This document shows positions 4,918-63,353 of a stretch of DNA of 64,000 bases, one piece after another. The number at the start of each line of letters is the position of its first letter. Within the stretch, counting starts at the first letter, position 1. Under the pieces are notes generated by a model, which saw only the letters and a program-made list of their open reading frames with translations, was not told the origin of the DNA and searched no databases. Origin of the DNA: a plasmid; sequence record NZ_CP017041.1, one strand, 5' to 3'. The translations under genes and the position numbers were made by a program.

Positions 4918-4939
4918 CTTTATCTCCCTTCATACTACA

Positions 4940-7900: not shown

Positions 7901-8236
7901 GGGTGTATAGATGGCACCTACGGCACTACAAGCTAGGATATCGACAAGACATTCGATACCGCGCGAGTGCTCTGAAATGACTACTCTTCCAAAGGCATGT
8001 TTCTTTTCCAAGAGATAGGCTCGATTGTTAACTCGATTCAATAACATTTCGTAGGTGATTTCTTCACCATGAATATCTATTACGGCAACGTGATGTGAAG
8101 TGATCTGGGCCCATTCAACTAAATACGAGTAGAGTGTGCGTTCTAAAGGCCAGTCGACGTTTTCCCCGACCAGTGCACTCCGGGTAGCGAGCAAGCTCAA
8201 CCCATTTTTTTCCAAACTTTTGGTAAGGTTTATCAC
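4940..8236 (-). CDS. NRPS A-PCP-C tridomain protein (C domain C-terminal, with degenerate HHxxxDG core)
   Basis: A domain motifs FTSGSTGEPKG, NAYGPTECS, YRTGDL, GRADRQIKISGVRIEPGEIE and NGKVD are followed by PCP (ESGGDSLRAIQL). A condensation domain follows, with a C1-like MNPAQQGIYFQ and a core reading MNEILIDGWG instead of HHxxxDG. Confidence 0.9.
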   Translation of the reverse strand: MINLTKSLEKNGLSLLATRSALVGENVDWPLERTLYSYLVEWAQITSHHVAVIDIHGEEITYEMLLNRVNNRAYLLEKKHAFGRVVISEHSRGIECLVDILACSAVGAIYTPIDPQWPEARRKHIKTITNAVAIFTENTSHVTEAKAPLGVTFLERVDDPFNAPSYCFFTSGSTGEPKGALIAHMGMMNHLHSKAHLLHLGVDSVVAQTAPTTFDVSIWQFCSALLVGGAVRIVPNGISQDPHELFSLLEEKHITHIELVPTVFRELIHEIGSSVSFSGLEYVLVTGEELPLRLARDWADKFPFVPLINAYGPTECSDDVTHAIVDGESLNSGEVPIGIPIPNTSLYVLEYAEGTWRPVSPGAQGELFVAGLCVGLGYIGSPDKTAQAFARIDGYPFRIYRTGDLVHQRADGQLVYDGRADRQIKISGVRIEPGEIENRILREIPELEDVVVVKFHPRVRERRAMVLRETTHQFLRQGDASLAAFYLPRADCLVTPKMLNNRAKSSLPRVMCPSRWIEVTDIPTTSNGKVDIKLLERRAGELLLNEIQESREGSIPGRVEQNQDSFILLVQDVLGTPVNPELTFIESGGDSLRAIQLANIVRSRGSYVRVRDLLSSYTLGSLAKEYQAQQISPKKSTSAKRSPSRFDDVKIPLTCDMNPAQQGIYFQWLLEPESPYYNYQILLECAGSNTDRIRRALGQALRANPQLMAKFGVDSTGRFTQTFPISAIDMDEISIHEVASAQEAREICWMKAAVPFNLEEGPAIAVDEIRINGYSTWFVLTMNEILIDGWGAMKFMEQLISLFECRNMDDQEIEVKTAMTSALEYFQHLSKPEEISAEAREFWSKSLDGVKSCFPLRDTLNSSCDPYAASVIEVSLDDEATAEIRSTAHALSTSPFAVFVAAYSLALAAVSDQHDFVVGAPVAGRNDEYEIGVPTLMLNMIAIRTRIDVEKKISDTVRSMISNVTEAVSFGDSVFSKVVSEFADHTNEDPLFSTMVNMLTYPSLEFWDGDRSLHLTELNTGFTKYDASLYIQRHGEDYTLQLAYKVAYVTPERANKVLALTAWFLTSDWLSGKTTVANAIKTALNDCDTSQITMLKSY

Positions 8237-8243
8237 TCTATAT

Positions 8244-9233
8244 TCACCGTTTCATGTCTCCGTGAAAGTCTGGAACACGTAATCCATCGCCGGATATTTG
8301 AACGTGCTCGTACAAGCTTTGAGCAACAGCAAGGTCCAAAATTCCTAAACCAAAAGGAGAGAATACGGTTGGATGATCAGGGTCAAGCTGCTTCTCAGAG
8401 CATATGAATTCCGCCAGTGTGCCTGTGATGAAATTTCGATTTCCGTTCAATTGTTCGAGGAGGTGGGGTGTAGTGTTTGCCTTCAGGCAATGTTCAACAT
8501 CATCAAACACGTTATTAGCCGTTCGAATGGTCTCAGGGTGTAAATCACGAAGCGAGATATTGAGAACGAGCTGGTTCGGTTGGAAACGTACACTCATCGG
8601 CACATAAGGAGTTCCGGCGCTGGTGGCTAATAGCACGAGATCACAGCCAAGAGCTTCTTCTAAACTGACTACCGAACACTCGGGGCCGTGGCGAGTGACT
8701 ATACGTGCGACTAATTCACTATTTAAATCGTGAATTTTCACTGGAACCGCTGTCGTGTATAGCGACTTAATAAAATGTAAAGTTGTCTGTGCGATAGGGC
8801 CACTGCCTACTACACCGATACTCGTAGGAGCACCGTGAAGAACTCGAACTGCAAGCGCAGCCGAGGCAGCTGTACGAGCCGCACTAATGCGGCTGGCCTC
8901 GATGAACGCATAAGCATAGCCGTTATCTGTGTTATTTAGCACGATGACTGCTGAAGCTCTTTGTAGCCCATGATCAACATTCTCAGGAAAGCTAGAAATC
9001 CATTTAATTCCCGACACACAGGTTTGATCATTGATATAAGATGGCAACGCTATGATACGATCTCGTGGAGCATCTGGAAACCGAAGAAAATAACTATCGG
9101 GACATACTGTATTTCCAGCGTGATGTGCTCGATAAACACGTTCAACAAGATCGATGAGAAACGACTCTCTGCCTTTTAAAAATGTTTCGACAAGCTTGGC
9201 GTCTATAATTAGCATTTCACCATATTTCGTCAT
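8244..9233 (-). CDS. sbnB: SbnB-like NAD-dependent dehydrogenase (ornithine cyclodeaminase/mu-crystallin family)
   Basis: 329 aa ORF with a Rossmann motif (GVVGSGPIAQ) in the OCD-family layout. It sits directly downstream of the SbnA-like gene, the canonical Dap-synthesis pair. Confidence 0.75.
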   Translation of the reverse strand: MTKYGEMLIIDAKLVETFLKGRESFLIDLVERVYRAHHAGNTVCPDSYFLRFPDAPRDRIIALPSYINDQTCVSGIKWISSFPENVDHGLQRASAVIVLNNTDNGYAYAFIEASRISAARTAASAALAVRVLHGAPTSIGVVGSGPIAQTTLHFIKSLYTTAVPVKIHDLNSELVARIVTRHGPECSVVSLEEALGCDLVLLATSAGTPYVPMSVRFQPNQLVLNISLRDLHPETIRTANNVFDDVEHCLKANTTPHLLEQLNGNRNFITGTLAEFICSEKQLDPDHPTVFSPFGLGILDLAVAQSLYEHVQISGDGLRVPDFHGDMKR

Positions 9234-10235
9234 TTAAATACCTTCCGTTTCTTTCACTTCGTGCGCAACAGGACGAATGGCATAATTAAATGCTGATTCC
9301 CCAAAGTTTTCCATAACCCAATCGTCGTTATATACTCCATCCAGATACCTTTCACCAAGATCCGGCGCAATAATGACAACGCGGCTTCCCTCGGGAATTT
9401 TATCTCGAAGAGCATCAAAAGCTGCTAGCACAGTGCCAGTCGATCCACCCGGTAAAAATCCTTCTACCTGCGCAATGCGTCGGCACTGTCTCACGGTATC
9501 GATTTCATCAATATAATACCGTTTTAGAGGAAATTTTTCGTCAAAGATTGGTGGCTTTACACTAGCGCCTAGACCAGGGATATATCGCCGCGAAGGAGCT
9601 CCTCCGAAAGTCACTGAACCAGTGCTATCAATAGCATAAACTTTGGTGCATGAACCACGCTTCATGACAGCCCTAGATACACCCATAAGCGTGCCAGTGG
9701 TACCAGCACCTACAAATAGGTAATCAGGATCTCCTAACTCTTCGACGATCGCTCTATATGTCTTTTTGGAATGAACCTCAGGATTGGCTACATTTTCGTA
9801 CTGGTTTGTCCATAAAGGCCCTCCTGGCATCTCTACTAATTCGCGAACTCTAGCAAGTCGCGTCCCAAGAAATCCGCCCGCTGCATCCAATGATTGAACA
9901 ACTTCCACTTCCGCGCCCAGTGCACGCATATGCGAAATCGACCTTGAATTTGCATTCAGATCTGTAACAATTGTTAATTTGTATCCTCGGCGCGCACATA
10001 CACCGGAAAGTGCTATGCCTAAACTCCCAGAAGAAGACTCTACGACCCAACCTCCTGGCTGAAGACCATGAAGCTTTTCTAAGCTATCGACGAGTGCAAT
10101 AGCCGTCTTGAGTTTTACGGAACCAGCAGTGTTTAAACCTTCTAATTTTGCGTAAACATCATGTTTAGGAAATGAATTTTTCAAGCGGACAAATTGAGAG
10201 TTTTCATCTAGTTCTTCAATAGATCCTGCAATCAT
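9234..10235 (-). CDS. sbnA: SbnA-like PLP-dependent synthase (cysteine synthase fold)
   Basis: 333 aa ORF with a PLP-lysine motif (KLEGLNTAGSVKLK) and glycine-rich loops (GAGTTGT, GGSTG). It is the first gene of the NRPS operon. Confidence 0.8.
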   Translation of the reverse strand: MIAGSIEELDENSQFVRLKNSFPKHDVYAKLEGLNTAGSVKLKTAIALVDSLEKLHGLQPGGWVVESSSGSLGIALSGVCARRGYKLTIVTDLNANSRSISHMRALGAEVEVVQSLDAAGGFLGTRLARVRELVEMPGGPLWTNQYENVANPEVHSKKTYRAIVEELGDPDYLFVGAGTTGTLMGVSRAVMKRGSCTKVYAIDSTGSVTFGGAPSRRYIPGLGASVKPPIFDEKFPLKRYYIDEIDTVRQCRRIAQVEGFLPGGSTGTVLAAFDALRDKIPEGSRVVIIAPDLGERYLDGVYNDDWVMENFGESAFNYAIRPVAHEVKETEGI

Positions 10236-10425
10236 TTATTTGCTCCTACTGCGCATGACATGACATCGGAAGTTTTCATAACATACAAGCAAATTATAAT
10301 GAGGAGTCTTGTACAGGCTATGGGCGTTATTAGAAGAGGTTTAGGCAAGAAGTTAAGGATCTTGATCATGTTGATCCTGCCTACGAATGGCGTTGATAGA
10401 ATGACAGAGACAACAACACATATGC
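10236..10425. promoter_or_regulatory. Divergent promoter region between NRPS operon (minus) and PPTase gene (plus)
   Basis: A 190-bp AT-rich intergenic region lies between two divergently oriented genes. No promoter motifs were computed. Confidence 0.3.
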
Positions 10426-11250
10426 GTGACCTCCCTAGTGATACACGCTGAAGTAACTTGTCACCTACTTCATGAGCTAGTCTATCTCCTTATAGGACCA
10501 CATAAAAGAGAGGACCAAAAATTGATCTACATTTCTCGTGTGTCACTCGATACATTCCCCAAGAGTGCCTTGCCACAGCTGATGGAAAGAGCTAGTCCTG
10601 AACGACGAGATAGAGCACGAAGATACGTGCGAATCGATGACTGCTTGCGCTGCCTCATAGCTGACGAACTCCGGGCCTATTCATTGAAGCTTGATTACAA
10701 GGTGCCAGTACAGTCAGAGGTATCGAAGAACGCTTTCGGGAAGCCGCTACTAGCAAACCGCGATGGTCCTAAGTTCAACTTGTCGCACGATGGGAAGTGG
10801 ATTGTCTGTGCCACAAGCCCACATCCTGTAGGCGTAGACGTCGAGGCAGTCGCTGAGCCAGGTTTAGCGGTGGTCTCGAACGATTTTTCAGTGGAAGAAG
10901 TGGAGGCCTTGCGGACGACCGCTACGGCTCCCCTCTCCATCGCTCGAGCGATGATCTGGACACGGAAGGAGGCATACCTCAAATATCTGGGGTTGGGTCT
11001 CACTGTTCAGTTAGATTCTTTTTCAGTAATAGATCAAACCTTGCTGTCGCCAGCTGAAGGGATGACAGACGGTATTCAGTTTTATAGTTGGTGCGATGCC
11101 GATAACTCGCATGTGATCTCTGTCTGTGGCCACGGCGAGGAAGTCGTCATCTCTTGCGTCAGCGGGCAAGAATTACTAGATGGACTGCCACCATCTCACT
11201 GTTCAGAAGAACCTCAAGAGCAACTTCGTTGGTTGCCCAATCTTAGTTAA
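10426..11250 (+). CDS. Sfp-type 4'-phosphopantetheinyl transferase
   Basis: It has the FNLSHDGKWIVCATSPHPVGVDVE and WTRKEAYLKYLGLGL (W/FxxKEA) motifs. The true start may be internal, because Sfp enzymes are about 230 aa. Confidence 0.7.
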   Translation: MTSLVIHAEVTCHLLHELVYLLIGPHKREDQKLIYISRVSLDTFPKSALPQLMERASPERRDRARRYVRIDDCLRCLIADELRAYSLKLDYKVPVQSEVSKNAFGKPLLANRDGPKFNLSHDGKWIVCATSPHPVGVDVEAVAEPGLAVVSNDFSVEEVEALRTTATAPLSIARAMIWTRKEAYLKYLGLGLTVQLDSFSVIDQTLLSPAEGMTDGIQFYSWCDADNSHVISVCGHGEEVVISCVSGQELLDGLPPSHCSEEPQEQLRWLPNLS

Positions 11251-11349
11251 GATCATTTTGTAATTATCAAAATTCCAAGTCGCCTCGAGAAAAGCATTAA
11301 CAGAGATCATATCTCACCAGGAGAGATGCGGCTTAAATAACCTTCTCTT

Positions 11350-12054
11350 TCAATCCTTCATGACAGCTAGGCTCTTCACCTCGTCACGATCAAGTACTGG
11401 ATCACTCATGATAGATTTTTCGTGCTCAGCAATGCATCGTGGGCACTTTTTGAAAAAAACTGATCCGAAACGAGTTATACCTGCTGGTAGTGGCCCGTAA
11501 TTAGTAGCTATCTTGGCTATAGCTCCCCATGAAGGAAGAACCCATTCCACAGACTGTCCTTGAGCAGGTACATCCGCTGAACGTCGATAATCAAATCCAC
11601 CCAAGAGCTCCGCAAGATCCCAATAAGCATAAAATAGATCCGAGGCCAAATCGCTCTTCGAATGGACTTCTTGTCGCAAGTCACCATCGTGTAAAATAGC
11701 GATAGTGGATCCCCGATCCTCCCCATGCACCAATGGTGGCATGGAAGAAAATTTCCGAGTATTATAGACATGTACCCAACCAGATACGGATTGCTCTGGA
11801 GCCATCGGGACAACATGTGCTGGTATGGAATCGAATCCTAAATAAAAAGCTGCTCGACACCTGTGGGCTCCATCAAGGATGATGTAAGGTGCCCCTTGGG
11901 CTACGTGGATGCTTTCTCGTAATGCTTCATGTTCTAGCAATTTTGTAAGACGCTTGAGACGCAAAGTCTCACATTCCTCATGCCATACGAGTTGGTTTAG
12001 CGGAAGATACGATGATAACTCACAGCTACTACTAATTTTCATCAATTTCATCAA
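11350..12054 (-). CDS. ParB/sulfiredoxin-fold (ParB-like nuclease domain) protein
   Basis: 234 aa ORF. It carries the motif YIILDGAHRCRAA, which matches the DGxHR ParB/Srx signature. It is the last low-GC gene before the compositional junction. Confidence 0.45.
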   Translation of the reverse strand: MMKLMKISSSCELSSYLPLNQLVWHEECETLRLKRLTKLLEHEALRESIHVAQGAPYIILDGAHRCRAAFYLGFDSIPAHVVPMAPEQSVSGWVHVYNTRKFSSMPPLVHGEDRGSTIAILHDGDLRQEVHSKSDLASDLFYAYWDLAELLGGFDYRRSADVPAQGQSVEWVLPSWGAIAKIATNYGPLPAGITRFGSVFFKKCPRCIAEHEKSIMSDPVLDRDEVKSLAVMKD

Positions 12055-25396: not shown

Positions 25397-26017
25397 ATGA
25401 ATCTCAAGGAGTGGGCAGGAGTGCGCGGGATTTCGTATCAGACCGCGCTGCGGTGGTATCACCGTGGGCTTATGCCTGTTCCCGTGCATCGAGTGGGAAG
25501 GCTCGTGCTCGTTGATTGTGACGAGCATGGGTTGCCGTTCGAGGGATCGACCCCCGAGCCGACGAAAACGATCATTTATGCTCGGGTGTGCTCGGCGGAT
25601 CAGAAACCCGATCTTGATAGACAGATCGCTCGAGTCATGACATGGGCGAGCGCGAAGGAATTGTCGGTTGATGGTGTTGTCACCGAGGTTGGTTCTGGTC
25701 TCGATGGGCATCGGAAGAAGTTCGAGAAATTGTTGAAGGATGGTTCTGTCAGGACGATTCTTGTGGAACATCGCGATCGATTCTGCCGATTCGGGTCGGA
25801 ATACATTGAAGCGGCACTTTCGGCACAGAATCGTCGTCTCCTTGTTGTTGACGACAAGGAGATCGAAGACGATCTTGTGCAGGATATGACAGATGTGCTC
25901 ACGTCCATGTGTGCGAGATTGTACGGAAAGAGATCAGCGAAACATCGCGCCCGAAAGGCCGTGGAAACGGCCATGACCACTGGCGGTGAAGAATCCGTTA
26001 AGGATGATCACACATGA
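25397..26017 (+). CDS. tnpA: IS607-type transposase TnpA (MerR-like HTH + serine recombinase)
   Basis: N-terminal HTH (GISYQTALRWYHRG) and a serine recombinase catalytic region (IIYARVCSADQKPDLDRQ). Confidence 0.85.
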   Translation: MNLKEWAGVRGISYQTALRWYHRGLMPVPVHRVGRLVLVDCDEHGLPFEGSTPEPTKTIIYARVCSADQKPDLDRQIARVMTWASAKELSVDGVVTEVGSGLDGHRKKFEKLLKDGSVRTILVEHRDRFCRFGSEYIEAALSAQNRRLLVVDDKEIEDDLVQDMTDVLTSMCARLYGKRSAKHRARKAVETAMTTGGEESVKDDHT

Positions 26018-27459
26018 TCACGAAGCCCGCCGCCCCGAAATTGGACAAGAATGGCCCAGATGTTGTTGTCCGGTCCTACAAGTTTGCGTTGAAACCCACG
26101 AAGTCGCAGGAACAGAAATTGCGTCAGCATACGGGTGCAGCAAGGTTTGTCTACAATTATCTCATTTCCCAGTGGCGCGACGACATTCACACTCGTGCCG
26201 AAGAGAAGAAATGCGGCGTTCCTGAGGATGAATTGACGCCGTTCACGTTTAAGTTGTCTGCCTATGATATGCGTAATTACTGGAATCGCACCAAGGGCGA
26301 GTGTGCTCCGTGGTGGCCAGAAGTATCGAAGGAGATCGGCAACGATGCGGCACGTCGTGCCCATGACTCCATTGAGAACTGGTACGACTCCAAGGGCGGG
26401 AAACGCAAGGGCAGAAGAGTGGGCTTCCCCCGGTTCCACAAGCGCGGATGCCATGAATCATGCACGTTCTCAACCGGGACGATCCGTGTCAATCCTGACC
26501 GTCACTCGGTGGCACTGCCCCGAATCGGAACCATAAAGACTCGCGAAAATACGCGCGAATTGCAACGCAAAATCGCCAAAGGTACGGCAAGAATCACTCA
26601 GGCCACGATCTCTCGCGGGTTCAATTATTGGCACGTCTCCTTCACCGTGTACGAGAAGAAACACATTCCCGAAACCCACGCACATTCCGGCTCTGTTGTC
26701 GGGGTGGACATGGGTGTGGGAGATCACGTCATCGTTGCGGCAACCCCAAACGGTGATGAAGTCATGCGTAGGGGATTGCCGCAATCGGTCAAGAAGGATG
26801 AAGCGCGAGTGCGGCACCTTCAGCGCAAACTGTCGCGTAAGCATGGCCCGGATAAGAGGACGAAAACCACGCCCTCGAATCGGTGGATTCGCGCGAACAA
26901 CCAAGTCAATAAGTATCGCGCGAAACTGGCTAACATACGTCGCGATCTTGCGGCGAAGGCTGCTCATGGGTTGGCGACGAATTATGAGACCGTCGTCATC
27001 GAGGACTTGAACGTTCAAGCCATGATGACGCGCGGAGGCGCACACAAACGTGGTCTGAATCGCGCGATAGCGCAGGCCTCATTTGCCGATGTCAGGCGAC
27101 GAATCACCTACAAAACGAGGTGGAATGGCGGTAGAACCGTCATTGCCGATCGGTGGTTTCCATCGTCGAAAACGTGTTCGGAATGTGGAGAAGTGAAATC
27201 CAAGCTCTCCTTGTCCGAGCGTGAATACATCTGCCATCGTTGCGGTGTTGTCGTGGACAGAGACCTCAATGCTGCAACAAATCTGGCGAAATTAGCGGCA
27301 CCGAAATCCGGTGTCGATTTTCACGGAACCGGGAGTTCGCCGGGGATGGGACGTGGAGGCGCGGGGAAGACCAACTCATCCTCGGGTGAGCTGGCACCGG
27401 CCGGTGAAGCGTCAATGGCCCGAAAGGACCTGAGCGGCCGCAAGGCCGGCACGAGATAA
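26014..27459 (+). CDS. tnpB: TnpB (RNA-guided nuclease, OrfB_IS605 family)
   Basis: 481 aa ORF with a C-terminal zinc finger plus RuvC-III (CSECGEVKSKLSLSEREYICHRCGVVVDRDLNAATNLA). Confidence 0.85.
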   Translation: MITKPAAPKLDKNGPDVVVRSYKFALKPTKSQEQKLRQHTGAARFVYNYLISQWRDDIHTRAEEKKCGVPEDELTPFTFKLSAYDMRNYWNRTKGECAPWWPEVSKEIGNDAARRAHDSIENWYDSKGGKRKGRRVGFPRFHKRGCHESCTFSTGTIRVNPDRHSVALPRIGTIKTRENTRELQRKIAKGTARITQATISRGFNYWHVSFTVYEKKHIPETHAHSGSVVGVDMGVGDHVIVAATPNGDEVMRRGLPQSVKKDEARVRHLQRKLSRKHGPDKRTKTTPSNRWIRANNQVNKYRAKLANIRRDLAAKAAHGLATNYETVVIEDLNVQAMMTRGGAHKRGLNRAIAQASFADVRRRITYKTRWNGGRTVIADRWFPSSKTCSECGEVKSKLSLSEREYICHRCGVVVDRDLNAATNLAKLAAPKSGVDFHGTGSSPGMGRGGAGKTNSSSGELAPAGEASMARKDLSGRKAGTR

Positions 27460-49077: not shown

Positions 49078-49970
49078 TCACCGCGGGCCTCCTGAGCCTG
49101 GCCCTCGCCGCCATGCCCCTGACCGCCCTCGCAGACGACGAAAACTTCAGTAGCCATACGGACACGAATGGTCCTGGCTATGACGTGCGGGTAGATGTGT
49201 GGAACCATCCTCATTCTGGGGCTCATACTCGCTCGGGGGATCGGGGCGGTGATGGGAAGAATCATGATGATGGCCCGGGCGAGGCTACGTCTGTTGATGG
49301 GTTGTCGCAGGCTGATGCGTGGGCTGCTCATGCCGGGTATGCCTCGGCGGCTAACTATCAGTGTCAGATGATGAAGTCTTTTCTTGATAGTTCCGAATCG
49401 GCGCATATGACTGCCGCTGAACGTGCCAGCGGGCAAGCCGATTTCACTAAGAAATGCCGGACGGATCCGTCAGGTAAGGCCAGTGCGATCCCTGACCCGG
49501 CCTGGCTGGGACGCCATGCGGCCATGAAGATGACCCTGCCCGGTGCCCGACCGGTCATTGCCCCTGACCCGAGTCTGAATCAGTGGCATTCGGCGGCGGT
49601 GGGCCAGGCGTTGTGGCTGTCGGTTGATGATCCCACCGCCACCACGCACAAATCGATCACGTTTATGGGACAGATTGTCTCGTTGAGCGCCAAACGAAAC
49701 GGTCTGTCGTTTGATATGGGCGACGGCCACACCGTCCATTGCGACGCCACGACCCCCTGGAGTCCGTCGGTGGAGCCGGGCACCCCCTCCCCAACGTGCG
49801 GCTACACCTATCAGCAGGCAGCCCCGCCAGAGGGCTACAAGGTCACCGCGATCACGTCGTGGGATGTGACGTGGTCGGTGCTGGGCCACACCGGGTCAGT
49901 CCATATTGAAAAGGCCGGTGGGCAGATGCTTCCGGTCGGCGAGTTGGAGTCGGTTGTCACCCACCGATGA
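49062..49970 (+). CDS. Secreted protein, unknown function
   Basis: Sec signal (MRRQVITAGLLSLALAAMPLTALA). Confidence 0.45.
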   Translation: MRRQVITAGLLSLALAAMPLTALADDENFSSHTDTNGPGYDVRVDVWNHPHSGAHTRSGDRGGDGKNHDDGPGEATSVDGLSQADAWAAHAGYASAANYQCQMMKSFLDSSESAHMTAAERASGQADFTKKCRTDPSGKASAIPDPAWLGRHAAMKMTLPGARPVIAPDPSLNQWHSAAVGQALWLSVDDPTATTHKSITFMGQIVSLSAKRNGLSFDMGDGHTVHCDATTPWSPSVEPGTPSPTCGYTYQQAAPPEGYKVTAITSWDVTWSVLGHTGSVHIEKAGGQMLPVGELESVVTHR

Positions 49971-50965
49971 CCCCCGATAGCCCCACCCTCTACGAGGTGT
50001 TAGGGGTTGCCCCCGACGCCACCGACACCCAGCTCAAGACGGCATGGCGCCTCGCCGCGAAAGCGACCCACCCCGATGCCGGCGGCGACCCCCAGGCGTT
50101 CACCACCGCCCAGCACGCCTGGGAAGTGTTGTCTGACCCGGGCTCCCGCGCCTCCTATGATGCCGCCCTGGCGGGAGAAGGCGACCCCGACGTAGAGGCC
50201 CCAGACAACACCGTCGACCCCTTGACCCCCTCGTGGTCGTGGAGTGTCTCCTTCATCGATGCCACCCCGCAGCTACGCCACACCCGGCCCGGCACGCTCG
50301 CCGCGATCGTGGTAGCCGCCGCCGGGGTCGAGGCCGGGATCGGCTGGCATGAGGCGTTGGAGGCCCTCGCCCCCTCTCCCGGGTTCGTAGGTTCGTGGTG
50401 GATGACCTCGGTTCCGGTCGTGGCCGCAGTGACATGGCTCGCGGCGATCACGGGGGTACAGGCCATCATGGCCGGGATCGGCTGGCTGGGGTGGGGCTTG
50501 ATCGGTGCCGCCTGCCTGTGGGGACACCCGTGGGCTGTGGCCGTATTGGGAGCCGGATGGGTGGCCTGGGTAGCCGCCGCAGTGTGGTGGTGGCGCCGAC
50601 GGATGGCCTGGCCTGCCCGCACCTGCCGGGCAGGAAACATGGTCGACATGCCCGAGGTTGACCCGCCATGGATGGAACCGGTGGAACTGGTAGCAGAACT
50701 CATCCCCTCCGTGCGGGCCATGTGGTCTCCTGACGGGCAAACGGTGGCTGTAGTAGCCGGTCGGCGGGTAGCAACCTTAGGGATGCCGATGCGAGGGTGG
50801 CGTGGCATCGAGATGCGGGGCTGGAACCCGATCGGTGCCGACACCGCGTGGATCGTTGACCAGATAGGCGGCTGGCTGGCCGACCAAGACAAACCGCTCA
50901 CCATCGACGGGAAAATCTTGTTCGAGACCTGGGACAGGCTACAGACAGTTCGTCCTCACAGCTGA
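49967..50965 (+). CDS. J-domain (DnaJ-like, HPD motif) membrane protein
   Basis: N-terminal J domain (LYEVLGVAPDATDTQLKTAWRLAAKATHPDAGGD...SYDAAL). It is followed by several Trp-rich TM helices and a cytoplasmic tail. Confidence 0.6.
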   Translation: MTPDSPTLYEVLGVAPDATDTQLKTAWRLAAKATHPDAGGDPQAFTTAQHAWEVLSDPGSRASYDAALAGEGDPDVEAPDNTVDPLTPSWSWSVSFIDATPQLRHTRPGTLAAIVVAAAGVEAGIGWHEALEALAPSPGFVGSWWMTSVPVVAAVTWLAAITGVQAIMAGIGWLGWGLIGAACLWGHPWAVAVLGAGWVAWVAAAVWWWRRRMAWPARTCRAGNMVDMPEVDPPWMEPVELVAELIPSVRAMWSPDGQTVAVVAGRRVATLGMPMRGWRGIEMRGWNPIGADTAWIVDQIGGWLADQDKPLTIDGKILFETWDRLQTVRPHS

Positions 50966-51040
50966 GAAAAATTTTGGGTCCGCCCTGCATATCGGGGCCT
51001 CTTCATACCTTCAAAAGTGTGAAGGGGAATACAGACTCTT
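50881..51040. repeat. Direct repeat copy A (last ~20 codons of J-domain gene + downstream hairpin ccttcaaaagtgtgaagg)
   Basis: About 75% identical to 53161-53325 over ~160 bp. The hairpin lies at 51008-51025. Confidence 0.7.
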
Positions 51041-51134
51041 CGACTGGAATTAAAATGGTATATGGCGTGTCCGGTCCGCACCCAGCTCCACGATGCGCCA
51101 TAGGGGAGCCATAACTTCACCAATCGTATACGAT

Positions 51135-51401
51135 ATGAGTGTGGGTGAGCATCTACCGGTGGCCGACAGTCAGATACAAGCATGGGCGGATGAAGCAGAA
51201 GCTGATTATGACCTCAGCATGCTTCCGCCGTCTCGACGTGGTCGCCCACCGGTGGGGAGGGGCCCGGGCACTGTGGTCCCTGTGCGCTTCGACGCGGACA
51301 CTCTCAAGGCGTTGTCACAACGAGCCCATGACGAAGGATTGACCACGCGTTCTGACGCGATCCGTGCTGCGGTTAACCAGTGGCTCGGCCTCGGCTCGTA
51401 A
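51135..51401 (+). CDS. RHH (CopG-family) DNA-binding protein / antitoxin-like
   Basis: C-terminal RHH (VVPVRFDADTLKALSQRAHDEGLTTRSDAIRAAVNQWL). The start at ATG 51135 is preferred. Confidence 0.45.
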   Translation: MSVGEHLPVADSQIQAWADEAEADYDLSMLPPSRRGRPPVGRGPGTVVPVRFDADTLKALSQRAHDEGLTTRSDAIRAAVNQWLGLGS

Positions 51402-51969
51402 ACATTATCGGCGCGACAACCTTACTGATGACGCTGTTGGTTACGCCGTAGAGCACATCTTGTACTCGTGGGCGCTCGACGATGCTGATGATCCTCGGTG
51501 CTGGATGATGATTCGGTGTTGACCCAGCTGGCCTCCTCATGGAGCTAGTTATCCTCATCTACGACGATGGCTATGAACTCCTGATCCACGCCATGAAAGC
51601 CCGCCCTCAGTATCTGAGCTACTTCGCTATCTAGTGTTGTTGGGCGAGTTGAACTCAACTTTTCTCCGACGCAAGCGCCAATAAAAGGCTGATCCATCCG
51701 AATACCACCAAACACGGCTGAAGTGTGGAACAGATTCAGCAAGACAGGGTGCGGTGCTCGGGTGCGTTGGGGAGATGAGGATATTCAGGCTTCTGGCGGG
51801 ATGTGGCTTGATGACGTCCAGGATCACCGGTTCGGTTTTGAAGGTGCCTTGCATTAATGTCGACAGGGTCGTACGACTCGAGGATTGGATCGACCAGCCC
51901 GTTGCGTCTGAAGAACTTCATCCACCCCGGTGGAGCTCCGGCCGCGTACTGGTGCAACGGATCATTAGC

Positions 51970-52944
51970 ATGGGTAGCGTGAGTATGCCTTCGATCGTGG
52001 TCAGTGCTGTCATCATCCAAGATTCTGACGGGCGGCTTCTCACTGTCCGTAAACGAGGCACCGAGGCATTCATGCTGCCAGGCGGCAAGCCGGAGCCCGG
52101 CGAGGACTCGCGTCAGGCAGTAGTCCGGGAAGTGCACGAAGAGCTCGGCGTCGCATTGTCTTCCGACGACCTGCGTCGGGTGGGAGTGTTCACCACGCGA
52201 GCAGCGAATGAGGCCGGCCATCAGGTGGTGGCGACGATTTTCACCCACACCCCGGTTGCGGTGAGTGAGCCAGCTGCTGAGATCGAGCAGATTCGTTGGC
52301 TCGATTGGAGTGTCGACGCCCTGCCTGACGACCTGGCCCCGCTGCTGGTCGAGGCAGTCATCCCGTGGCTGCGGCGCCGTATCCGGTCGGTCGCTGTATT
52401 CACGGGTGCGAAGGATGGAACCGACCCTCATTATCGTGTCGAAGCAACCGCCTTGGGCCGGGGTCTCGCACACGCCGGGATCACCCTGGTTTATGGCGGC
52501 GGGAAGGTCGGGATGATGGGTGCTGTTGCTGATGCGGCCCTCGCTGCTGGCGGCGCTGTGATCGGAGTGATGCCGCAGCACTTGGTGGACGGGGAGATCG
52601 CCCATCCTAGTCTGACTCACCTCGAGGTAGTGCGGACTATGCATGAGCGCAAGCAGCGGATGAGTGACCTAGCTGACGCGTTCGTCGCGCTACCCGGCGG
52701 CGGCGGAACCCTTGACGAGCTATTCGAAGCATGGACATGGCAGCAGCTCGGTGTACACAGCAAACCCGTGGCCTTGTACGACTCGACCTTCTGGGCACCG
52801 CTGACCGCGCTACTCAACCACATGACCATCGAAGGCTTCATCCGCCCTGAGGACCGCGCCTCGCTCGTGATCGCCGATACCATACATCAGCTGATGGCCG
52901 ATCTTGAGGGATGGACCCCACCACCACCGAAGTGGCGCTCGTGA
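51970..52944 (+). CDS. NUDIX hydrolase - LOG family (cytokinin riboside 5'-monophosphate phosphoribohydrolase-like) fusion protein
   Basis: Complete Nudix box (GGKPEPGEDSRQAVVREVHEELGV, i.e. Gx5Ex7REUxEExGU). It is followed by LOG signatures (VYGGGKVGMMGAV and ALPGGGGTLDELFEAW, i.e. GGGxxGxM and PGGxGTxxE). The start at ATG 51970 is preferred over the ORF-track 51754. Confidence 0.7.
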   Translation: MGSVSMPSIVVSAVIIQDSDGRLLTVRKRGTEAFMLPGGKPEPGEDSRQAVVREVHEELGVALSSDDLRRVGVFTTRAANEAGHQVVATIFTHTPVAVSEPAAEIEQIRWLDWSVDALPDDLAPLLVEAVIPWLRRRIRSVAVFTGAKDGTDPHYRVEATALGRGLAHAGITLVYGGGKVGMMGAVADAALAAGGAVIGVMPQHLVDGEIAHPSLTHLEVVRTMHERKQRMSDLADAFVALPGGGGTLDELFEAWTWQQLGVHSKPVALYDSTFWAPLTALLNHMTIEGFIRPEDRASLVIADTIHQLMADLEGWTPPPPKWRS

Positions 52945-53086
52945 CATAGAACAAATGATTCTGACTATGGCTCATTGACATCTGCGCAGCGGCTACTAGC
53001 TCCATTGACTTCAAATCGGGCCTTGGCCGAGGCTCGGTTCAGGTGGCCCGGAATGGATCCCCACAAATTGAATGCTCATGATCGAG

Positions 53087-53245
53087 GTGATGAACGCCCA
53101 CTCTATTGTCCTACGCCCGGTTGTATCCAGCGAGCAATTGAAGGTGCTGCGCCTGCTGGTCGACCAGGCCGAGCCACTCATCATCGACGGGCGCATCTTG
53201 TACGAGGCATGGGACAGGCTGCAAACAGCCCGTCCGGCCCGCTAG
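53087..53245 (+). CDS. Small ORF (52 aa) whose C-terminus is paralogous to the J-domain protein C-terminus
   Basis: MNAHSIVLRPVVSSEQLKVLRLLVDQAEPLIIDGRILYEAWDRLQTARPAR. Compare ...TIDGKILFETWDRLQTVRPHS at 50900-50965. It is below the ORF-track length threshold. Confidence 0.3.
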   Translation: MMNAHSIVLRPVVSSEQLKVLRLLVDQAEPLIIDGRILYEAWDRLQTARPAR

Positions 53246-53325
53246 AAAAAATTTTTAGGGCCCGCTCCGCACATCCCGGTCTGTACCCACACCTTCAAGG
53301 GTGTGAAGGGAATAAAAACACACCT
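53161..53325. repeat. Direct repeat copy B (with hairpin ccttcaagggtgtgaagg)
   Basis: About 75% identical to 50881-51040. The hairpin lies at 53292-53309. Confidence 0.7.
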
Positions 53326-53396
53326 AACAACAACTTTGTTTCATGATTTGGCGCGTCGGACCCTTTCTGACCGATGTCGTGCGCAACAATGGACCC

Positions 53397-53741
53397 ATGA
53401 GTTCGCCTACCAAGATGCGCCGGAAGGGAACACGCGGCCCGAAACCTCGCAGCGACGAGGAGCTAACGGCTGTGATGTGCCGCATCCCAGAGTCAGTGGC
53501 CGAACGTGTCAGCGATATGGCTTGGGAGCTGAGGCTCTCCCGATCCGATCTTGTGGGCTGGTCGGCCCTCTATGCACTCAACTCGATGCTCAGACAGCGC
53601 GGAGAGGACACGATTCCGGTTCCGGAGTATCTGGACAAGGCCGTGCTCACTGCGTTGTATCCCGATGGGTTGCCCTTCGACGAGGACAACGAGGAGCCGG
53701 GCGAGAATGCCGGGCAGGAGGAGCTTGCGATGACTGGATGA
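53397..53741 (+). CDS. RHH (CopG-like) protein upstream of rep-like gene
   Basis: RIPESVAERVSDMAWELRLSRSDLVGWSALYAL ribbon-helix-helix with an acidic C-terminal tail. Confidence 0.4.
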   Translation: MSSPTKMRRKGTRGPKPRSDEELTAVMCRIPESVAERVSDMAWELRLSRSDLVGWSALYALNSMLRQRGEDTIPVPEYLDKAVLTALYPDGLPFDEDNEEPGENAGQEELAMTG

Positions 53742-54054: not shown

Positions 54055-55605
54055 ATGACCGCTTTAATTCAAGCTCTGCCGACAGCTGAACTGTCTGCTG
54101 GACCTGGTGCTAGCAGTCCAGCTAGACCCTCTGCTGAGGGCTTCATCAAGATTCATCACGACCTCATTAGTGCGGGCGTGTCGGGTAACGCGATGGCGTT
54201 GTTCGTCGCGTTACGTAACCAGCCCGGCTGTGATCAGTGGACCCGTCACTCGTACCTGCGGCTAGCCCAATGGTGCGGCTGGGATGGGCTGTCGGAGGCG
54301 GCGGGCTGTAAGCGGGTGCAGCGGGCCGCTGCTGAGCTCGCTAGCGGTGGTTGGCTGGAATCGCGGGTCGGCCATGATCGTCGCACCGCTAAGACGCTGG
54401 TGTGGCATCGGTTGACCAGCCCCGACACCGACCGCTGGGAGCAATTGCCGCGGATTGTGTGGGCGAGGATCTGCCAGATCGCCGGGGAGACGTCGGGAGA
54501 GTGGGTGAGGCATTGGCTGGTGTGGCGGATGCTGGCCGGTCGTACTGGTGTGGCTCAGGCCCCTACGTCCATCGTGGCCCGGTTCCTGGGCTGTTCTTCG
54601 CGCCAGGTCTCTCATATCCGTGGGGCTCTCGTTGATGCCGGTCTGCTCGGCTGTGACGAGGTGTCGGGGGCGGCGAGCCGGGTGTGGTTCCCCTCGATGG
54701 CCGAGGAGTGTGCAGCGGATCGTGAGGTGGTCGATGGGGCCGTCGTCGGTGCTGGGGTGGGCTCTGGTGAAGGTGTCGAGGAGGGCGGGGAACCCCTGTC
54801 GATTTTGTCCACCCACCCCTGTCGATTTTGTCCACCCACCCCTGTCGATTTTGTCCGCCAAGTATTAGACAAACCATTAGACAGTGAATTAGACCTTGGG
54901 TCGCGTCAGCGTGTTAGCTCACCAACGCGCGCGCGCGCGGCGGCCGAGCCGCCGAAGCCAAAGAAACCCATACCACCAACGCCTGAACCAGCAGCCCCCG
55001 CTTCAGACAGTCCTGTGTCAGCGCACGCTGATGAGGCTGCCGAGTTGGCGTGGCGGTTCGTGGGGTGGTGTCCTCAGCTGGTAGGGGCACCGAAGAAGGT
55101 GCGTGGCCAGCTCCGTCAGATGGTTGCCAAGCAGATCCGTCTCCATCGTGCCTGGCTGGATGTGCCGGCGTTGACTGTTGCCGCTGAGCGAGTCCGGGAA
55201 ATCGGGGCGCTGGGTGATCGGCACTGCGAGATCGTTCGAGACGAGCTGCATGGCGTGATTGCCGACCGCAAGGCAGCCCCCCCAGCCCCCTCACCCTCAC
55301 CAGACGAAGGAGACACGACTGTGTGGATTTACAAAGACCCTCATGAGACTCTTGACGAGTTTGCGGCCAGGACTGAGCCCTCTCGTGTGTGGGAGGTCTC
55401 CGAGCGCGATGACATGGCTGGCGGGATCGCCGTGAACTTGCTGGCGGCTAAGCCGGATGATCCGATGGGCTGGCTGACTCGCCGGCAAACCATGCTGATG
55501 GTCCGGTTCCCCCAAGCCGTCGACGAGGTCGTAGAGATGTGTCACATCGTGCGTACCGCCTTGGAGGCCGACATGGCCGCCGGAACCCGGTGGGAGGACC
55601 GATGA
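54055..55605 (+). CDS. Replication-initiator-like protein (N-terminal winged-helix) with internal 23-bp iterons
   Basis: 516 aa ORF. The N-terminus (FIKIHHDLISAGVSGNAMALFVALRNQ) resembles Rep/wHTH proteins. A 23-bp x3 repeat lies inside the CDS. Confidence 0.45.
   Translation: MTALIQALPTAELSAGPGASSPARPSAEGFIKIHHDLISAGVSGNAMALFVALRNQPGCDQWTRHSYLRLAQWCGWDGLSEAAGCKRVQRAAAELASGGWLESRVGHDRRTAKTLVWHRLTSPDTDRWEQLPRIVWARICQIAGETSGEWVRHWLVWRMLAGRTGVAQAPTSIVARFLGCSSRQVSHIRGALVDAGLLGCDEVSGAASRVWFPSMAEECAADREVVDGAVVGAGVGSGEGVEEGGEPLSILSTHPCRFCPPTPVDFVRQVLDKPLDSELDLGSRQRVSSPTRARAAAEPPKPKKPIPPTPEPAAPASDSPVSAHADEAAELAWRFVGWCPQLVGAPKKVRGQLRQMVAKQIRLHRAWLDVPALTVAAERVREIGALGDRHCEIVRDELHGVIADRKAAPPAPSPSPDEGDTTVWIYKDPHETLDEFAARTEPSRVWEVSERDDMAGGIAVNLLAAKPDDPMGWLTRRQTMLMVRFPQAVDEVVEMCHIVRTALEADMAAGTRWEDR
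54793..54861. repeat. Tandem 23-bp repeat x3 (cccctgtcgattttgtccaccca), iteron-like
   Basis: Three copies with a period of 23 bp, not a multiple of 3. They are read in three frames (PLSILSTH / PCRFCPP / TPVDFVR) inside the rep-like ORF. Confidence 0.8.
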
Positions 55606-56363
55606 GGTCACTGCGGCGAAACATCATGGTTGTGGCTGGTGTGCTCGGCGTCGCGGTAGCGGCGGGCCCGACCTTAGCCAGGTCGTTGCCGTTTGCCGAC
55701 AGGTCTCAGCCGCCGACGACCAGAAATGCCACCCAGGCGGCCGCAACCGGTGCAACGGCTGCGGCGGGCGCGCTCAACCGTCTGCCAGTCAAAGGCAAAG
55801 CAGCGATGACCGGATACACCCGGACCCAATTCGGGCAGGCGTGGACCGATGACACCGACCGGGAGTTGACCCGCCCCTGGGGCCACAACGGATGCGACAC
55901 CCGCAACGATGCCCTTGCCCGCGACCTGGTCGAGGCCCACCTGAAACCCGGATCACGATGCGTGGTCGTCTCCGGGCGACTCCACGACCCCTACACCGGG
56001 TCCACACTCGCCTGGCGGCGCGGCCGGCACACCTCGACAACAGTCCAAATCGACCACGTCGTAGCCCTCGGGAACGCGTGGATTACCGGCGCGCAAAAAC
56101 TCTCACCGCTGCAACGCACCGCCCTGGCCAACGACCCGTTGAACTTGCTGGCTGTCGACGGACCCGCTAATGAGGCCAAACGAGACAGGGATGCAGCGAC
56201 CTGGCTACCCCCTAACAAGGCCTACAGATGCGACTATGTGGCCCGCCAAATCGCCGTCAAAATGAAGTACCAGCTGTGGGTCACCGCCGCAGAGAAGACC
56301 GCTATGGCGCGGGTATTGCACCGCTGCCCGACCCAGACACTCCCTGTAGGAGCCACACGATGA
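55602..56363 (+). CDS. Secreted DUF1524/HNH-type endonuclease
   Basis: Signal peptide (MRSLRRNIMVVAGVLGVAVAAGPTLA). HNH-like core (IDHVVALGNAW...NLLAVDGPANEAKRDRDAATWLPP). ATGA overlap with the rep-like stop. Confidence 0.55.
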   Translation: MRSLRRNIMVVAGVLGVAVAAGPTLARSLPFADRSQPPTTRNATQAAATGATAAAGALNRLPVKGKAAMTGYTRTQFGQAWTDDTDRELTRPWGHNGCDTRNDALARDLVEAHLKPGSRCVVVSGRLHDPYTGSTLAWRRGRHTSTTVQIDHVVALGNAWITGAQKLSPLQRTALANDPLNLLAVDGPANEAKRDRDAATWLPPNKAYRCDYVARQIAVKMKYQLWVTAAEKTAMARVLHRCPTQTLPVGATR

Positions 56364-61903: not shown

Positions 61904-62263
61904 TCATCCGAATCCAGGGTGTAGTCGGGGTCTGAACCCGCCGGTCTCGAGCAGGGATCTGGCGATGTAGTTGGTCAGGTTGCGGAACCCCAGCGCCGAG
62001 CCGCGCAGGTGCTCGAGCCTGCCGTTGATCGCCTCGGTGGGCCCGTTGGAGGTGCTGGGCCGGTCGAAGTAGGCCAGCACGTCGGCGGCGCGCTTCTTCA
62101 GCGTCCTGCCGAGCTTGGTGATCTCGACCAGGGCCTTGGGGACGCCGGTGCTGATCGAGTCGATGAGCCGGGCCATCAGCTCGCGGCCGTGGCGCCGGTT
62201 CTCGTGGCGGTAGGCGGCGATCATGGGCTGGTAGACGCTCCGTGACCTCGACCTGGGCGTCGT
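61904..62263 (-). pseudogene. ISL3-family transposase C-terminal fragment
   Basis: ...VLAYFDRPSTSNGPTEAINGRLEHLRGSALGFRNLTNYIARSLLETGGF is the conserved ISL3 C-terminus. The N-terminal body is absent; the remainder of the 354-aa ORF is unrelated Arg-rich readthrough. Confidence 0.5.
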
Positions 62264-62392
62264 CGGCGAGCAGGGTGTCCAGTCGGTCCTTCTGCTTGTC
62301 GTTGAGCAGGTCGGCGCCGTTACCGCTGCCGCACCGACCAGACGCATGTCTACAGGGAATCCGCGCCCATCGACGACCTGGTCGAAGACCTC

Positions 62393-62842
62393 ATGGTCAA
62401 GGCCCTGCGCAAGGTCGAGATGAGGGCCCTGTTGGCACCCGCCGCGCCCGACGTCGATGCGGCCGCCATCCAGCGGGAGTTGGCCGACATCGACGCCAAG
62501 AGGATCCACTACGCCACAATGCTGGCCGACGACGAGATGGACGACGCTCAGTTCAAGGCCGCCAACAAGCGGCTCGCCGCGCGTCGCGCGGCGTTGGAGG
62601 AGCAACTGCCAGCCCCGGTCTCCCCGGTGGCCCAGCGCATTCTCGATGTGCCCCCGGAGACCGTGGCCAACGAGTGGGCCCTGCTCGACCAGGACGAGAA
62701 GCGGGCCCTGATCGACGCACTGTTCACTATCGAGCTGGCGGCCCCCGGCACCAAGGAGAACGCCTACAAGGACTGGCGGAAGAGGATCGTGAACCCCGAG
62801 ACGGTCATCGTGACGCCGAAGCAGCAGGGTAAGGTTGCTTAG
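62393..62842 (+). pseudogene. Recombinase-like C-terminal fragment (coiled-coil region), N-terminally truncated
   Basis: 149 aa with an Ala/Arg-rich helical segment (KRIHYATMLADDEMDDAQFKAANKRLAARRAALEEQL). There is no catalytic domain. The assignment is weak. Confidence 0.25.
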
Positions 62843-63353
62843 GTGTTTCGCATCGACGGTCGAACAGCGACCAACCCTGCTTGGTGAGGCGATAGCACTT
62901 GCCAAAGACGTCGGCCAGCTCGACCAGGTCGCCACCCGCCGCGAACTCGGCCATGCCCCCGCCGACATGCTGGGTGAGGGTGCTGCGGCCCACCAGCTGC
63001 CACGTCAGGGCGTGGGCGTCGCCGCTCATCAGCCGCCACAGCAGGCGCACGTCCAGAGCAGCGCTGGGGCTGAAGACCACTTCGGCGGCTGCCCCCACAA
63101 CAGTGGTCACGTTCAGTGCCTGCTTCTTGGTCAGGCCCGCAGCATCGGCCCACCTCGACCTGGCCTCTGTCCGACGGTGTCGCATGTGCTCGCGGGAATC
63201 CAGCCAAGAGCCGGCCTCCGGGTGGGTGCGATCCACGTATGGCTCGAGATCATCGCCGTACTGCAGCGCCCGCTTGTAGAACTCGTCAACCACCCGCAAA
63301 GCCCGCTGCTGGCGATCCACTGGGACATCGGGCGCCAGCACCCAGACCGCCAT
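62805..63353 (-). CDS. Hypothetical protein
   Basis: 182 aa ORF with no recognizable domain. Confidence 0.3.
   Translation of the reverse strand: MAVWVLAPDVPVDRQQRALRVVDEFYKRALQYGDDLEPYVDRTHPEAGSWLDSREHMRHRRTEARSRWADAAGLTKKQALNVTTVVGAAAEVVFSPSAALDVRLLWRLMSGDAHALTWQLVGRSTLTQHVGGGMAEFAAGGDLVELADVFGKCYRLTKQGWSLFDRRCETPKQPYPAASASR

Follow-up and report, generated by a model that had tools for sequence, protein, structure and literature searches.

What would a conjugation-type plasmid of Cutibacterium gain from a gene that joins a Nudix hydrolase to a LOG-family phosphoribohydrolase? Such a gene (51970..52944, + strand) lies in a 64,000-nucleotide stretch of the plasmid record NZ_CP017041.1, referred to here as the window. 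A sequence-only reading of it had proposed that the fused enzyme degrades ADP-ribose-type or NAD-derived molecules and acts as a counter-defence enzyme against immune second messengers. The comparisons presented in this work point elsewhere, to a bifunctional enzyme that would degrade nucleotides in two steps in a house-cleaning or salvage role, with non-canonical purine nucleotides as its likely substrates. We assign this reading a probability of about one half.

The fusion itself is well founded. The 324-amino-acid protein carries Nudix and LOG domains that score above Pfam and NCBIfam cutoffs, and the Nudix box and the LOG motifs GGGKVGMMG and PGGGGTLDE, described earlier as intact, are all found in the sequence; their joint presence is far beyond chance. 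The surrounding open frame (51754..52944, +) comprises 396 codons without stop interruption. Since the ATG at 51970 is the point where homologues (314-340 aa) begin to align, a homologue with 84% identity (P0002) is likewise 324 aa long, and the 570 bp 5' of the gene show no similarity between the plasmid and P0002 loci, positions 51970-52944 (324 codons plus stop) are likely to represent the extent of the gene. For the same reasons, the 389-aa RefSeq model in related plasmids (NC_021086 44038-45207) is probably over-extended, with a mis-called start codon. The residues that 51754-51969 would add at the N-terminus have no Pfam match; P0002 does not conserve them, and all other homologues lack them. 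When the gene is compared with that of P0002, the ratio of nonsynonymous to synonymous substitution (dN/dS) comes to 0.14 for the whole length, 0.26 for the Nudix half and 0.08 for the LOG half, which points to purifying selection on both domains. The AlphaFold (AF2) model (pLDDT 92.7, pTM 0.78) predicts the two-domain fold confidently and the inter-domain arrangement with fair confidence.

The N-terminal domain (residues 1-137; 51970..52380, +) is recognised as MutT-like Nudix by its Pfam match, invariant columns, Protein Data Bank (PDB) profile and predicted fold. Pfam NUDIX (PF00293) matches residues 10-113 with E=1.2e-14 and 54.8 bits against a cutoff of 21.1, and the modelled strands and helix are compatible with a Nudix fold. 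The Nudix box, read from the sequence between G39 and V61 (GKPEPGEDSRQAVVREVHEELGV; 52084..52152, +), runs G39-X5-E45-X7-R53 E54 V H E57 E58 L G V61 and is a perfect GX5EX7REUXEEXGU, with R53, E54, E57 and E58 invariant across 26 homologues. Further motifs define a subfamily: VRKRGT..FMLPGGK, AANE (78-81), AEIE..W (102-110) and LAPLL..V.P (123-132), the last three taking the subfamily-wide forms AANE, AEIxExxW and LAPLLxxxVxP. Single-sequence and profile searches of the PDB place MutT, 8-oxo-dGTPases, the NudG CTP pyrophosphohydrolase, plant NUDX1 and uncharacterised MutT-like proteins at the top, and the Foldseek neighbours are also of the MutT type. The best profile and structural neighbours, the MutT, NudG and NUDX1 enzymes (1mut, 2rrk, 5gp0, 3r03, 3hhj), share the perfect Nudix box, the size and the fold of the plasmid domain, whereas identity to them is only ~21-25%, their equivalog cutoffs are not reached and the plasmid domain has its own subfamily motifs. 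In the NCBIfam scan, MutT-like models rank first, none of them above its cutoff; the MutT 8-oxo-dGTP diphosphatase model TIGR00586 scores 31.9 bits against 97.9, and PRK10776 scores 24.5 against 148. That enzyme is the nearest class, yet the plasmid protein does not belong to it.

Other Nudix identities were considered and rejected. Isopentenyl-diphosphate isomerase (IDI), a family with conserved catalytic Cys/Glu and metal-binding His residues, scores 31.5 bits against 127, and the Nudix half has no invariant Cys or His; assignments to NudB, CoA-diphosphatase and RppH fail on low scores and missing signature residues.

The subfamily was surveyed by a profile search of 1.84 billion representative sequences at E<=1e-30, which returned 296 clusters, mostly stand-alone proteins of 130-175 aa with generic annotation. 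Among the 46 longer members, the fusion partners include ASCH (6), LOG (5) and GNAT (4) domains. The ASCH fold acts on bases or nucleosides that carry modifications.

The C-terminal domain (residues 138-324; 52381..52944, +) is a type-I LOG by TIGR00730 (E=1.1e-55, 188.1 bits against a cutoff of 96.35), and the Pfam Lysine_decarbox/LOG profile (PF03641) matches residues 183-311 with E=1.9e-41 and 141.8 bits (cutoff 27). It contains the motif GGGKVGMMG at residues 176-184 (52495..52521, +), in which G176-G178, G181, M183 and G184 are invariant, and the nucleotide-binding and catalytic motif PGGGGTLDE at residues 242-250 (52693..52719, +). The LOG motifs are invariant in the same 26 homologues, as are R227 and E250; this catalytic pair and the phosphate-binding loop are both present. 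The equivalents of the prenyl-pocket residues (M224, H225, K228, E253 and W257) are retained and match CgLOG and AtLOG3, the mapping being based on CgLOG Met96/His97/Arg99/Lys100/Glu122/Glu125/Trp129 (PMC4979012) together with an alignment to 5zbj. Identity is 56-57% to the Pseudomonas aeruginosa PAO1 type-I LOG (5zbj/5zbk) and ~50% to that of Corynebacterium glutamicum (Cg2612; 5its/5zbl). The AF2 model superposes on 5zbj, 5zbk and 5its with TM 0.95-0.96 and root-mean-square deviations of 1.0-1.2 A, type-II LOGs scoring lower. These type-I LOGs have GGGxxGxMG, PGGxGTxxE, the Arg/Glu pair and the prenyl-pocket residues in common with the C-terminal 187 residues of the plasmid protein; unlike it, they are single-domain proteins of ~180-200 aa, to which the plasmid protein adds the N-terminal 137-residue Nudix domain. 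At position 249 the plasmid protein has Asp, not Glu, and the Mycobacterium marinum LOG also has Asp at the equivalent position (Asp120). The cytokinin-LOG equivalog NF058542 is not reached (138.5 bits against a cutoff of 300). Related LOGs have been crystallised with AMP, and one of them turns AMP into adenine in vitro (PMC4979012). On these comparisons, the domain is a canonical type-I LOG and is presumably active.

The fusion is a recurrent arrangement. Every full-length member among the best 120 homologues has both domains, the sole exception being one truncated Nudix-only entry, and more than 100 fused clusters occur in Actinomycetota, with hosts in Corynebacterium, Brevibacterium, Glutamicibacter, Arthrobacter, Leucobacter, Oryzihumus, Plantactinospora and Propionicimonas; the Corynebacterium jeikeium cluster alone holds 123 member sequences. 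Database labels for these proteins read just 'TIGR00730 family Rossman fold protein'. In Corynebacterium urogenitale, the fusion gene begins 3 bp downstream of dnaE1; in Corynebacterium sp. H130 it adjoins a secA-like gene, an abhydrolase gene and a tRNA; in Oryzihumus it adjoins metal-efflux and heat-shock genes, and in Brevibacterium and Glutamicibacter it stands alone. An all-against-all comparison of neighbours at 10 loci and the window found no conserved partner gene and no recognisable defence gene. Enrichment of the fusion on phages or mobile elements, or in anti-defence or leading-region contexts, was not observed either: homologues are mostly chromosomal, and the plasmid copy has the tad locus on one side and the rep/par genes on the other.

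The tRNA genes near two of these loci are an observation in their own right. One lies 65 bp downstream of the fusion in Corynebacterium sp. H130 (L169 7010-7083) and is followed by a DUF222 gene, and another lies ~390 bp downstream in Brevibacterium (L002 9367-9439). Such tRNA-flanked sites may be island boundaries, which would fit a patchy, non-syntenic distribution.

Outside Actinomycetota, the same two enzymes occur as separate neighbouring genes, with a Nudix of the same subfamily (38-47% identity, AANE and LAPL motifs) beside a type-I LOG in both gene orders. The LOG gene precedes the Nudix gene between corA and recG in Acinetobacter baumannii, the two overlap by 8 bp on a Klebsiella IncFIB plasmid, and Nudix precedes LOG on a Sphingobium plasmid. 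The A. baumannii record is labelled as a 539-kb plasmid; the pair is nonetheless read as chromosomal, because the same pair occurs in A. baumannii records of 3.6-4.1 Mb (H22-H24). Fusion in one phylum and adjacency in another are together classical evidence of a shared pathway. In a hidden Markov model scan of the 8 kb around ~75 stand-alone LOG genes, no Nudix gene turned up; therefore, Nudix adjacency is specific to a subset of LOGs rather than general. A profile scan of genome contigs with the fusion alignment recovered mainly stand-alone LOG genes, with the Nudix half only at L004, L078 and L082, and it gives no census of the fusion. As a side observation, the Klebsiella split operon (L176 1-8000) lies a few kb from genes for TerD, VWA and a HAD hydrolase (ter cluster); the accessory region there is a mosaic that also holds a RepB remnant and IS21.

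A further association was found in large phage contigs (L084 6009-9518, L086 4814-9108 and L088 6014-9040), in which DnaK, a Nudix protein of 130-145 aa, a type-II-like LOG of 220 aa and an NT5C-like 5'-nucleotidase are encoded in this order as a conserved cluster. The cluster is an independent Nudix-LOG association in a nucleotide-metabolism setting, because the Nudix there lacks the AANE and LAPL motifs. Another IMG/VR contig (L087 7962-11492) holds a lower-GC cargo block beside a high-GC open reading frame (ORF) of ~900 aa, with a Nudix related to the subfamily (111 bits). By eye, the translations also show a P-loop kinase-like ORF and a small ASCH/DUF3850-like one, together with a 724-aa ORF whose N-terminus has a dinucleotide-binding motif; the block may represent an uncharacterised nucleotide-centred system.

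Functional coupling of Nudix and LOG is supported by three independent lines: more than 100 fusions in Actinomycetota, split pairs in both orders, and an unrelated Nudix beside LOG and an NT5C-like gene in phage contigs. In the proposed mechanism, the MutT-type Nudix domain would first hydrolyse a purine nucleoside 5'-tri- or diphosphate to the 5'-monophosphate, with release of pyrophosphate or phosphate. The type-I LOG domain, which is a dimer in solved relatives, would then cut the N-glycosidic bond of the monophosphate to yield the free base and ribose 5-phosphate, as its similarity to assayed LOGs suggests. The most likely substrates are non-canonical adenine or purine nucleotides, for example, N6-modified species that arise from RNA or tRNA turnover and re-phosphorylation, or oxidised or otherwise damaged purine nucleoside triphosphates (NTPs). 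The module would serve house-cleaning or salvage by taking these nucleotides out of the pool for good. Modified or damaged purines and a house-cleaning role are proposed because of the MutT-like Nudix, the ASCH partners of the subfamily, the prenyl-type LOG pocket and the ordinary chromosomal settings. There is a precedent in the Bordetella pertussis LOG, which makes a modified-purine base tied to oxidative stress (PMC6864091). The module can be regarded as patchy, accessory or housekeeping, fused in Actinomycetota and arranged as a two-gene operon in some Pseudomonadota, and the Cutibacterium plasmid family carries a single copy of it as stable cargo, flanked by the tad locus and the region for replication and partition. 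Of the earlier proposal, the general logic of pyrophosphate cleavage followed by base removal fits the intact motifs and the conserved fusion and adjacency; its ADP-ribose or NAD-derived substrate is not supported, as the Nudix half groups with NTP pyrophosphohydrolases of the MutT, NudG and NUDX1 type.

Several points weigh against the two-step house-cleaning enzyme. Both catalytic steps are inferred. Nudix specificity is notoriously difficult to predict, and since the domain falls below each curated equivalog cutoff (mutT 31.9/97.9 bits, NudG 28.1/156 bits), its substrate class is read from nearest neighbours only. None of the loci scanned has conserved neighbours, a riboswitch or a regulator that would hint at the substrate. 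The distribution is patchy and non-syntenic, with the module on plasmids in three lineages, which would fit an accessory trait better than strict housekeeping. Nor does this reading account for the retention of such an enzyme by a conjugative plasmid.

Two kinds of fused enzyme offer comparisons. In Mycobacterium tuberculosis MutT1, a Nudix domain is joined to a histidine-phosphatase domain, so that the two act one after the other on a non-canonical NTP. The plasmid protein resembles it as a Nudix fused to a second hydrolase; in MutT1, however, this second hydrolase is a phosphatase, and degradation ends with a nucleoside monophosphate, not a free base. The NCBIfam MutT1 model matches the plasmid protein negligibly (17.7 bits against 475). 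The second kind is the isopentenyltransferase (IPT)-LOG fusion, described for Rhodococcus fascians A21d2 and Claviceps purpurea (PMC8234997, PMC4092121). Here too, LOG is fused to the enzyme that acts immediately before it in a nucleotide pathway, but that enzyme, an isopentenyltransferase, synthesises the cytokinin nucleotide; in the plasmid protein, the partner is a pyrophosphohydrolase, and IPT is not linked to it.

The IPT-LOG fusion is the known LOG fusion, and Nudix-LOG is an uncharacterised combination of two well-known kinds of enzyme, conserved across phyla. The earlier statement that no such fusion had been characterised agrees with our literature search, which found no paper on a Nudix-LOG fusion or operon. 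The combination would not surprise a specialist and is not evidence of conflict between plasmid and host. If the two-step mechanism is right, it would define a dedicated bacterial route from unwanted purine nucleoside tri- or diphosphates to free base and ribose 5-phosphate, past the monophosphate end-point of MutT-type enzymes, and it would give a physiological rationale for non-plant LOGs, whose role in human-associated bacteria is debated. The module is also experimentally tractable: Corynebacterium and Cutibacterium make it as one polypeptide, and A. baumannii encodes it in a two-gene operon. On the plasmid it is probably no more than ordinary cargo, and it says little about Cutibacterium acnes virulence or plasmid-host conflict unless one of the minority readings discussed below is true.

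The free base itself could be the purpose of the reaction. On this alternative, which we consider unlikely, N6-modified ATP or ADP would be converted via the monophosphate to a diffusible purine base (e.g., isopentenyladenine). Its target would be the bacterium itself, neighbouring cells or the human host, and a role of this kind has been proposed for the LOGs of M. tuberculosis and B. pertussis. The LOG half has the full proposed prenyl-binding pocket of cytokinin-activating LOGs, and LOGs of human-pathogenic bacteria release modified purine bases (PMC6864091, PMC8234997); the same pocket residues are, however, found in most type-I LOGs, and at none of the examined loci does a gene for adenylate isopentenyltransferase, or for any other base-modifying enzyme, accompany the fusion. 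The plasmid family has been linked to skin inflammation (PMC11137742), but the discussion in that paper stresses the tad locus and, under the terms searched, makes no mention of the gene.

It is distinctly unlikely that the protein is an enzyme of ADP-ribose or NAD catabolism outside immunity, in which the Nudix domain would cleave ADP-ribose, NADH, FAD or ApnA to AMP and a second product, and LOG would convert AMP to adenine and ribose 5-phosphate. AMP is produced by many Nudix enzymes and is the ligand in type-I LOG crystal structures, and a weak match to the NadM-Nudix ADP-ribose pyrophosphatase speaks for this reading, at E ~1e-3 in NCBIfam (18.3 bits against 403) and ~1e-5 in the PDB profile search. 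Against it, this is the only such match, and ADP-ribose pyrophosphatases rank far below MutT-type enzymes in all comparisons and are nearly missing from the top 60 PDB matches. As a rule, ADP-ribose pyrophosphatases and ApnA hydrolases carry a Pro or Tyr 15-18 residues past the Nudix box, the Pro of ADP-ribose pyrophosphatases lying at about 15-16. In the plasmid protein, residues 62-78 (ALSSDDLRRVGVFTTRA) contain no Pro, and neither Pro nor Tyr occurs 15-18 residues after the box. With these weak matches and the missing Pro, the Nudix half was not assigned to the ADP-ribose pyrophosphatases, and the substrate named in the sequence-only reading is not supported.

The proposed counter-defence role, in which the plasmid would destroy ADP-ribose-derived or other nucleotide immune messengers (Thoeris, CBASS) in recipient cells, is highly improbable. 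Carriage on a conjugation-type plasmid, conserved in 5/5 relatives, speaks for it, as does the Nudix and LOG adjacency in large phage contigs. Like phage anti-Thoeris and anti-CBASS enzymes, sponges and predicted viral ADP-ribose (ADPr) processors, the plasmid gene is carried by a mobile element; the domains of those viral processors include Nudix and SLOG, the superfamily of LOG, and phage Nudix and SLOG/LOG domains have been predicted to act against ADPr-based signals (PMC9503650). However, the viral SLOG domains predicted for cyclic ADP-ribose (cADPR) belong mainly to the YpsA-like clade, few phages having LOG-clade members (PMC9503650), and they are typically stand-alone or fused to Macro or NADAR domains; the known cADPR-degrading enzyme is an RyR-domain protein (PMC13232231). 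The Nudix-LOG family, in contrast, has a MutT-like Nudix and is overwhelmingly chromosomal, with ordinary neighbours. No fused homologue was present in 50,697 phage records, in the BFVD models or in IMG/VR contigs, where only split, distantly related pairs occur, and where 'phage' matches did span both domains, the genes were split and the contigs resembled A. baumannii chromosome. PADLOC returned a generic Nudix match only and no defence context; its PsyrA (E=1e-3) and PDC-S07 (40.6 bits) matches were judged to reflect generic superfamily similarity. The sequence-only reading had itself named purely housekeeping activity, with homologues conserved in core chromosomal contexts, as an argument against a counter-defence role, and homologues do lie on the chromosomes of Corynebacterium, Brevibacterium, Glutamicibacter, Oryzihumus and Leucobacter, which speaks against that role at the genomic level.

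A narrower version of the same idea is a comparable long shot: a plasmid copy co-opted from the chromosomal house-cleaning family might aid plasmid establishment by destroying, in new recipients, a nucleotide-based messenger of immunity or stress or a toxic nucleotide that a defence system makes. If true, this would be the first enzymatic Nudix-LOG counter-defence. The most improbable reading, that the Nudix domain is a non-catalytic ligand sensor exerting allosteric control over LOG, has in its favour the recruitment of Nudix domains as sensors elsewhere, as in NrtR (PMC2330246), and the predicted inter-domain arrangement, but runs counter to the invariant full Nudix box, which is kept in the split proteobacterial genes, and to the predominance of stand-alone subfamily members, which suggests an autonomous enzyme.

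With the house-cleaning enzyme retained as the preferred reading, the plasmid around it can be described. The region matches the 55.6-kb plasmid of C. acnes HL096PA1 at 99.4% identity, and the fusion protein is 98.5-100% identical in 5/5 related plasmids of C. acnes and Cutibacterium modestum (PLSDB). Positions 1-12000 share 99.5% identity with the C. modestum plasmid pKB17-24694 and carry nonribosomal peptide synthetase (NRPS) genes, whereas only ~17% of positions 54000-64000 matches known Cutibacterium plasmids. The window is thus a mosaic Cutibacterium linear plasmid of conjugation type with a tad locus. The earlier description of a conjugative element is reasonable, given the FtsK/TraB-like and VirB4-like ORFs, the tad locus and the papers PMC5696575 and PMC9119108, in which such linear plasmids are described as probably conjugative. 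The gene itself, which has the tad locus and its J-domain gene on one side and the replication/partition region on the other, was not found by searches for Nudix and LOG names in two plasmid papers, PMC5696575 included.

The sequence-only reading had also placed the gene in a repeat-bounded cassette next to toxin-antitoxin genes. Direct repeats do flank a 2.28-kb segment, although they are imperfect, with 76% identity over 101 nt and a total length of ~150 nt. The left repeat (50875..51026) comprises the 3' end of the J-domain gene and a hairpin-like intergenic motif (families D1 and D4); the right copy (53155..53310) holds part of a remnant ORF (53072-53245) of 57 aa, which shares 59% identity with the C-terminal end of the J-domain protein. 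The arrangement is common to all relatives, and the event behind it is therefore old. Simple tandem gene duplication was rejected as its origin, as the CopG gene and an RHH-like ORF at 53343-53741 are not homologous. Besides the Nudix-LOG gene, the segment contains a CopG/ribbon-helix-helix (RHH) gene upstream (51093..51401, +; RHH_1 E=7.2e-6, annotated as CopG in NC_021086), a possible regulator or orphan antitoxin. Its BrnA_antitoxin match (E=0.035) falls below the cutoff, and no toxin was found beside it, the ORFs at 51364-51522, 51545-51742(-) and 51754-51969 having no Pfam match; the evidence for toxin-antitoxin genes is therefore weak. Base composition revealed no foreign island in the window. 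Rfam searches covered the window, 51300-52100 at E<=1 and nine homologous loci; they returned two tRNAs and no riboswitch.

J-domain or Hsp70 genes recur beside Nudix-LOG in three unrelated settings, namely, the plasmid, Oryzihumus and the phage contigs. The plasmid encodes a J-domain membrane protein near the gene (49967-50965), and in Oryzihumus (L180 9238-17005) a DnaJ-domain protein, HSP20, MerR and HSP70 lie near the fusion; homology between the two J-domain proteins is limited to the J domain.

At 2.6 kb downstream of the fusion gene, a 274-aa ORF (55539-56363, +) combines an N-terminus resembling a signal peptide with a GmrSD_C/DUF1524 nuclease domain (E=1.9e-20). It is not at the corresponding place in the HL096PA1 plasmid, and such a neighbour is missing at the other fusion loci examined; in Gordonia (L174 4293-5426), a stand-alone Nudix of the same subfamily lies 16 bp downstream of a 41%-identical GmrSD_C gene. 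Three tandem 23-bp repeats of iteron-like appearance (54792-54860; ACCCCTGTCGATTTTGTCCACCC) lie inside a 516-aa ORF without Pfam match (54055-55605), near the replication-protein annotation of related plasmids. A 1.7-kb ParA/DUF192 stretch is 76% like Corynebacterium and Glutamicibacter plasmids. The NRPS genes of the first 12 kb encode an A-PCP-C protein and a second A-PCP protein and are accompanied by an ATP-grasp protein and an SbnA-like gene. A TnpB/IS605 OrfB-type ORF with a Cas12f-like TNB domain lies amid the conjugation genes (26014-27459, +), and an ISL3-family transposase is encoded close to the end of the window (61904-62968, -).

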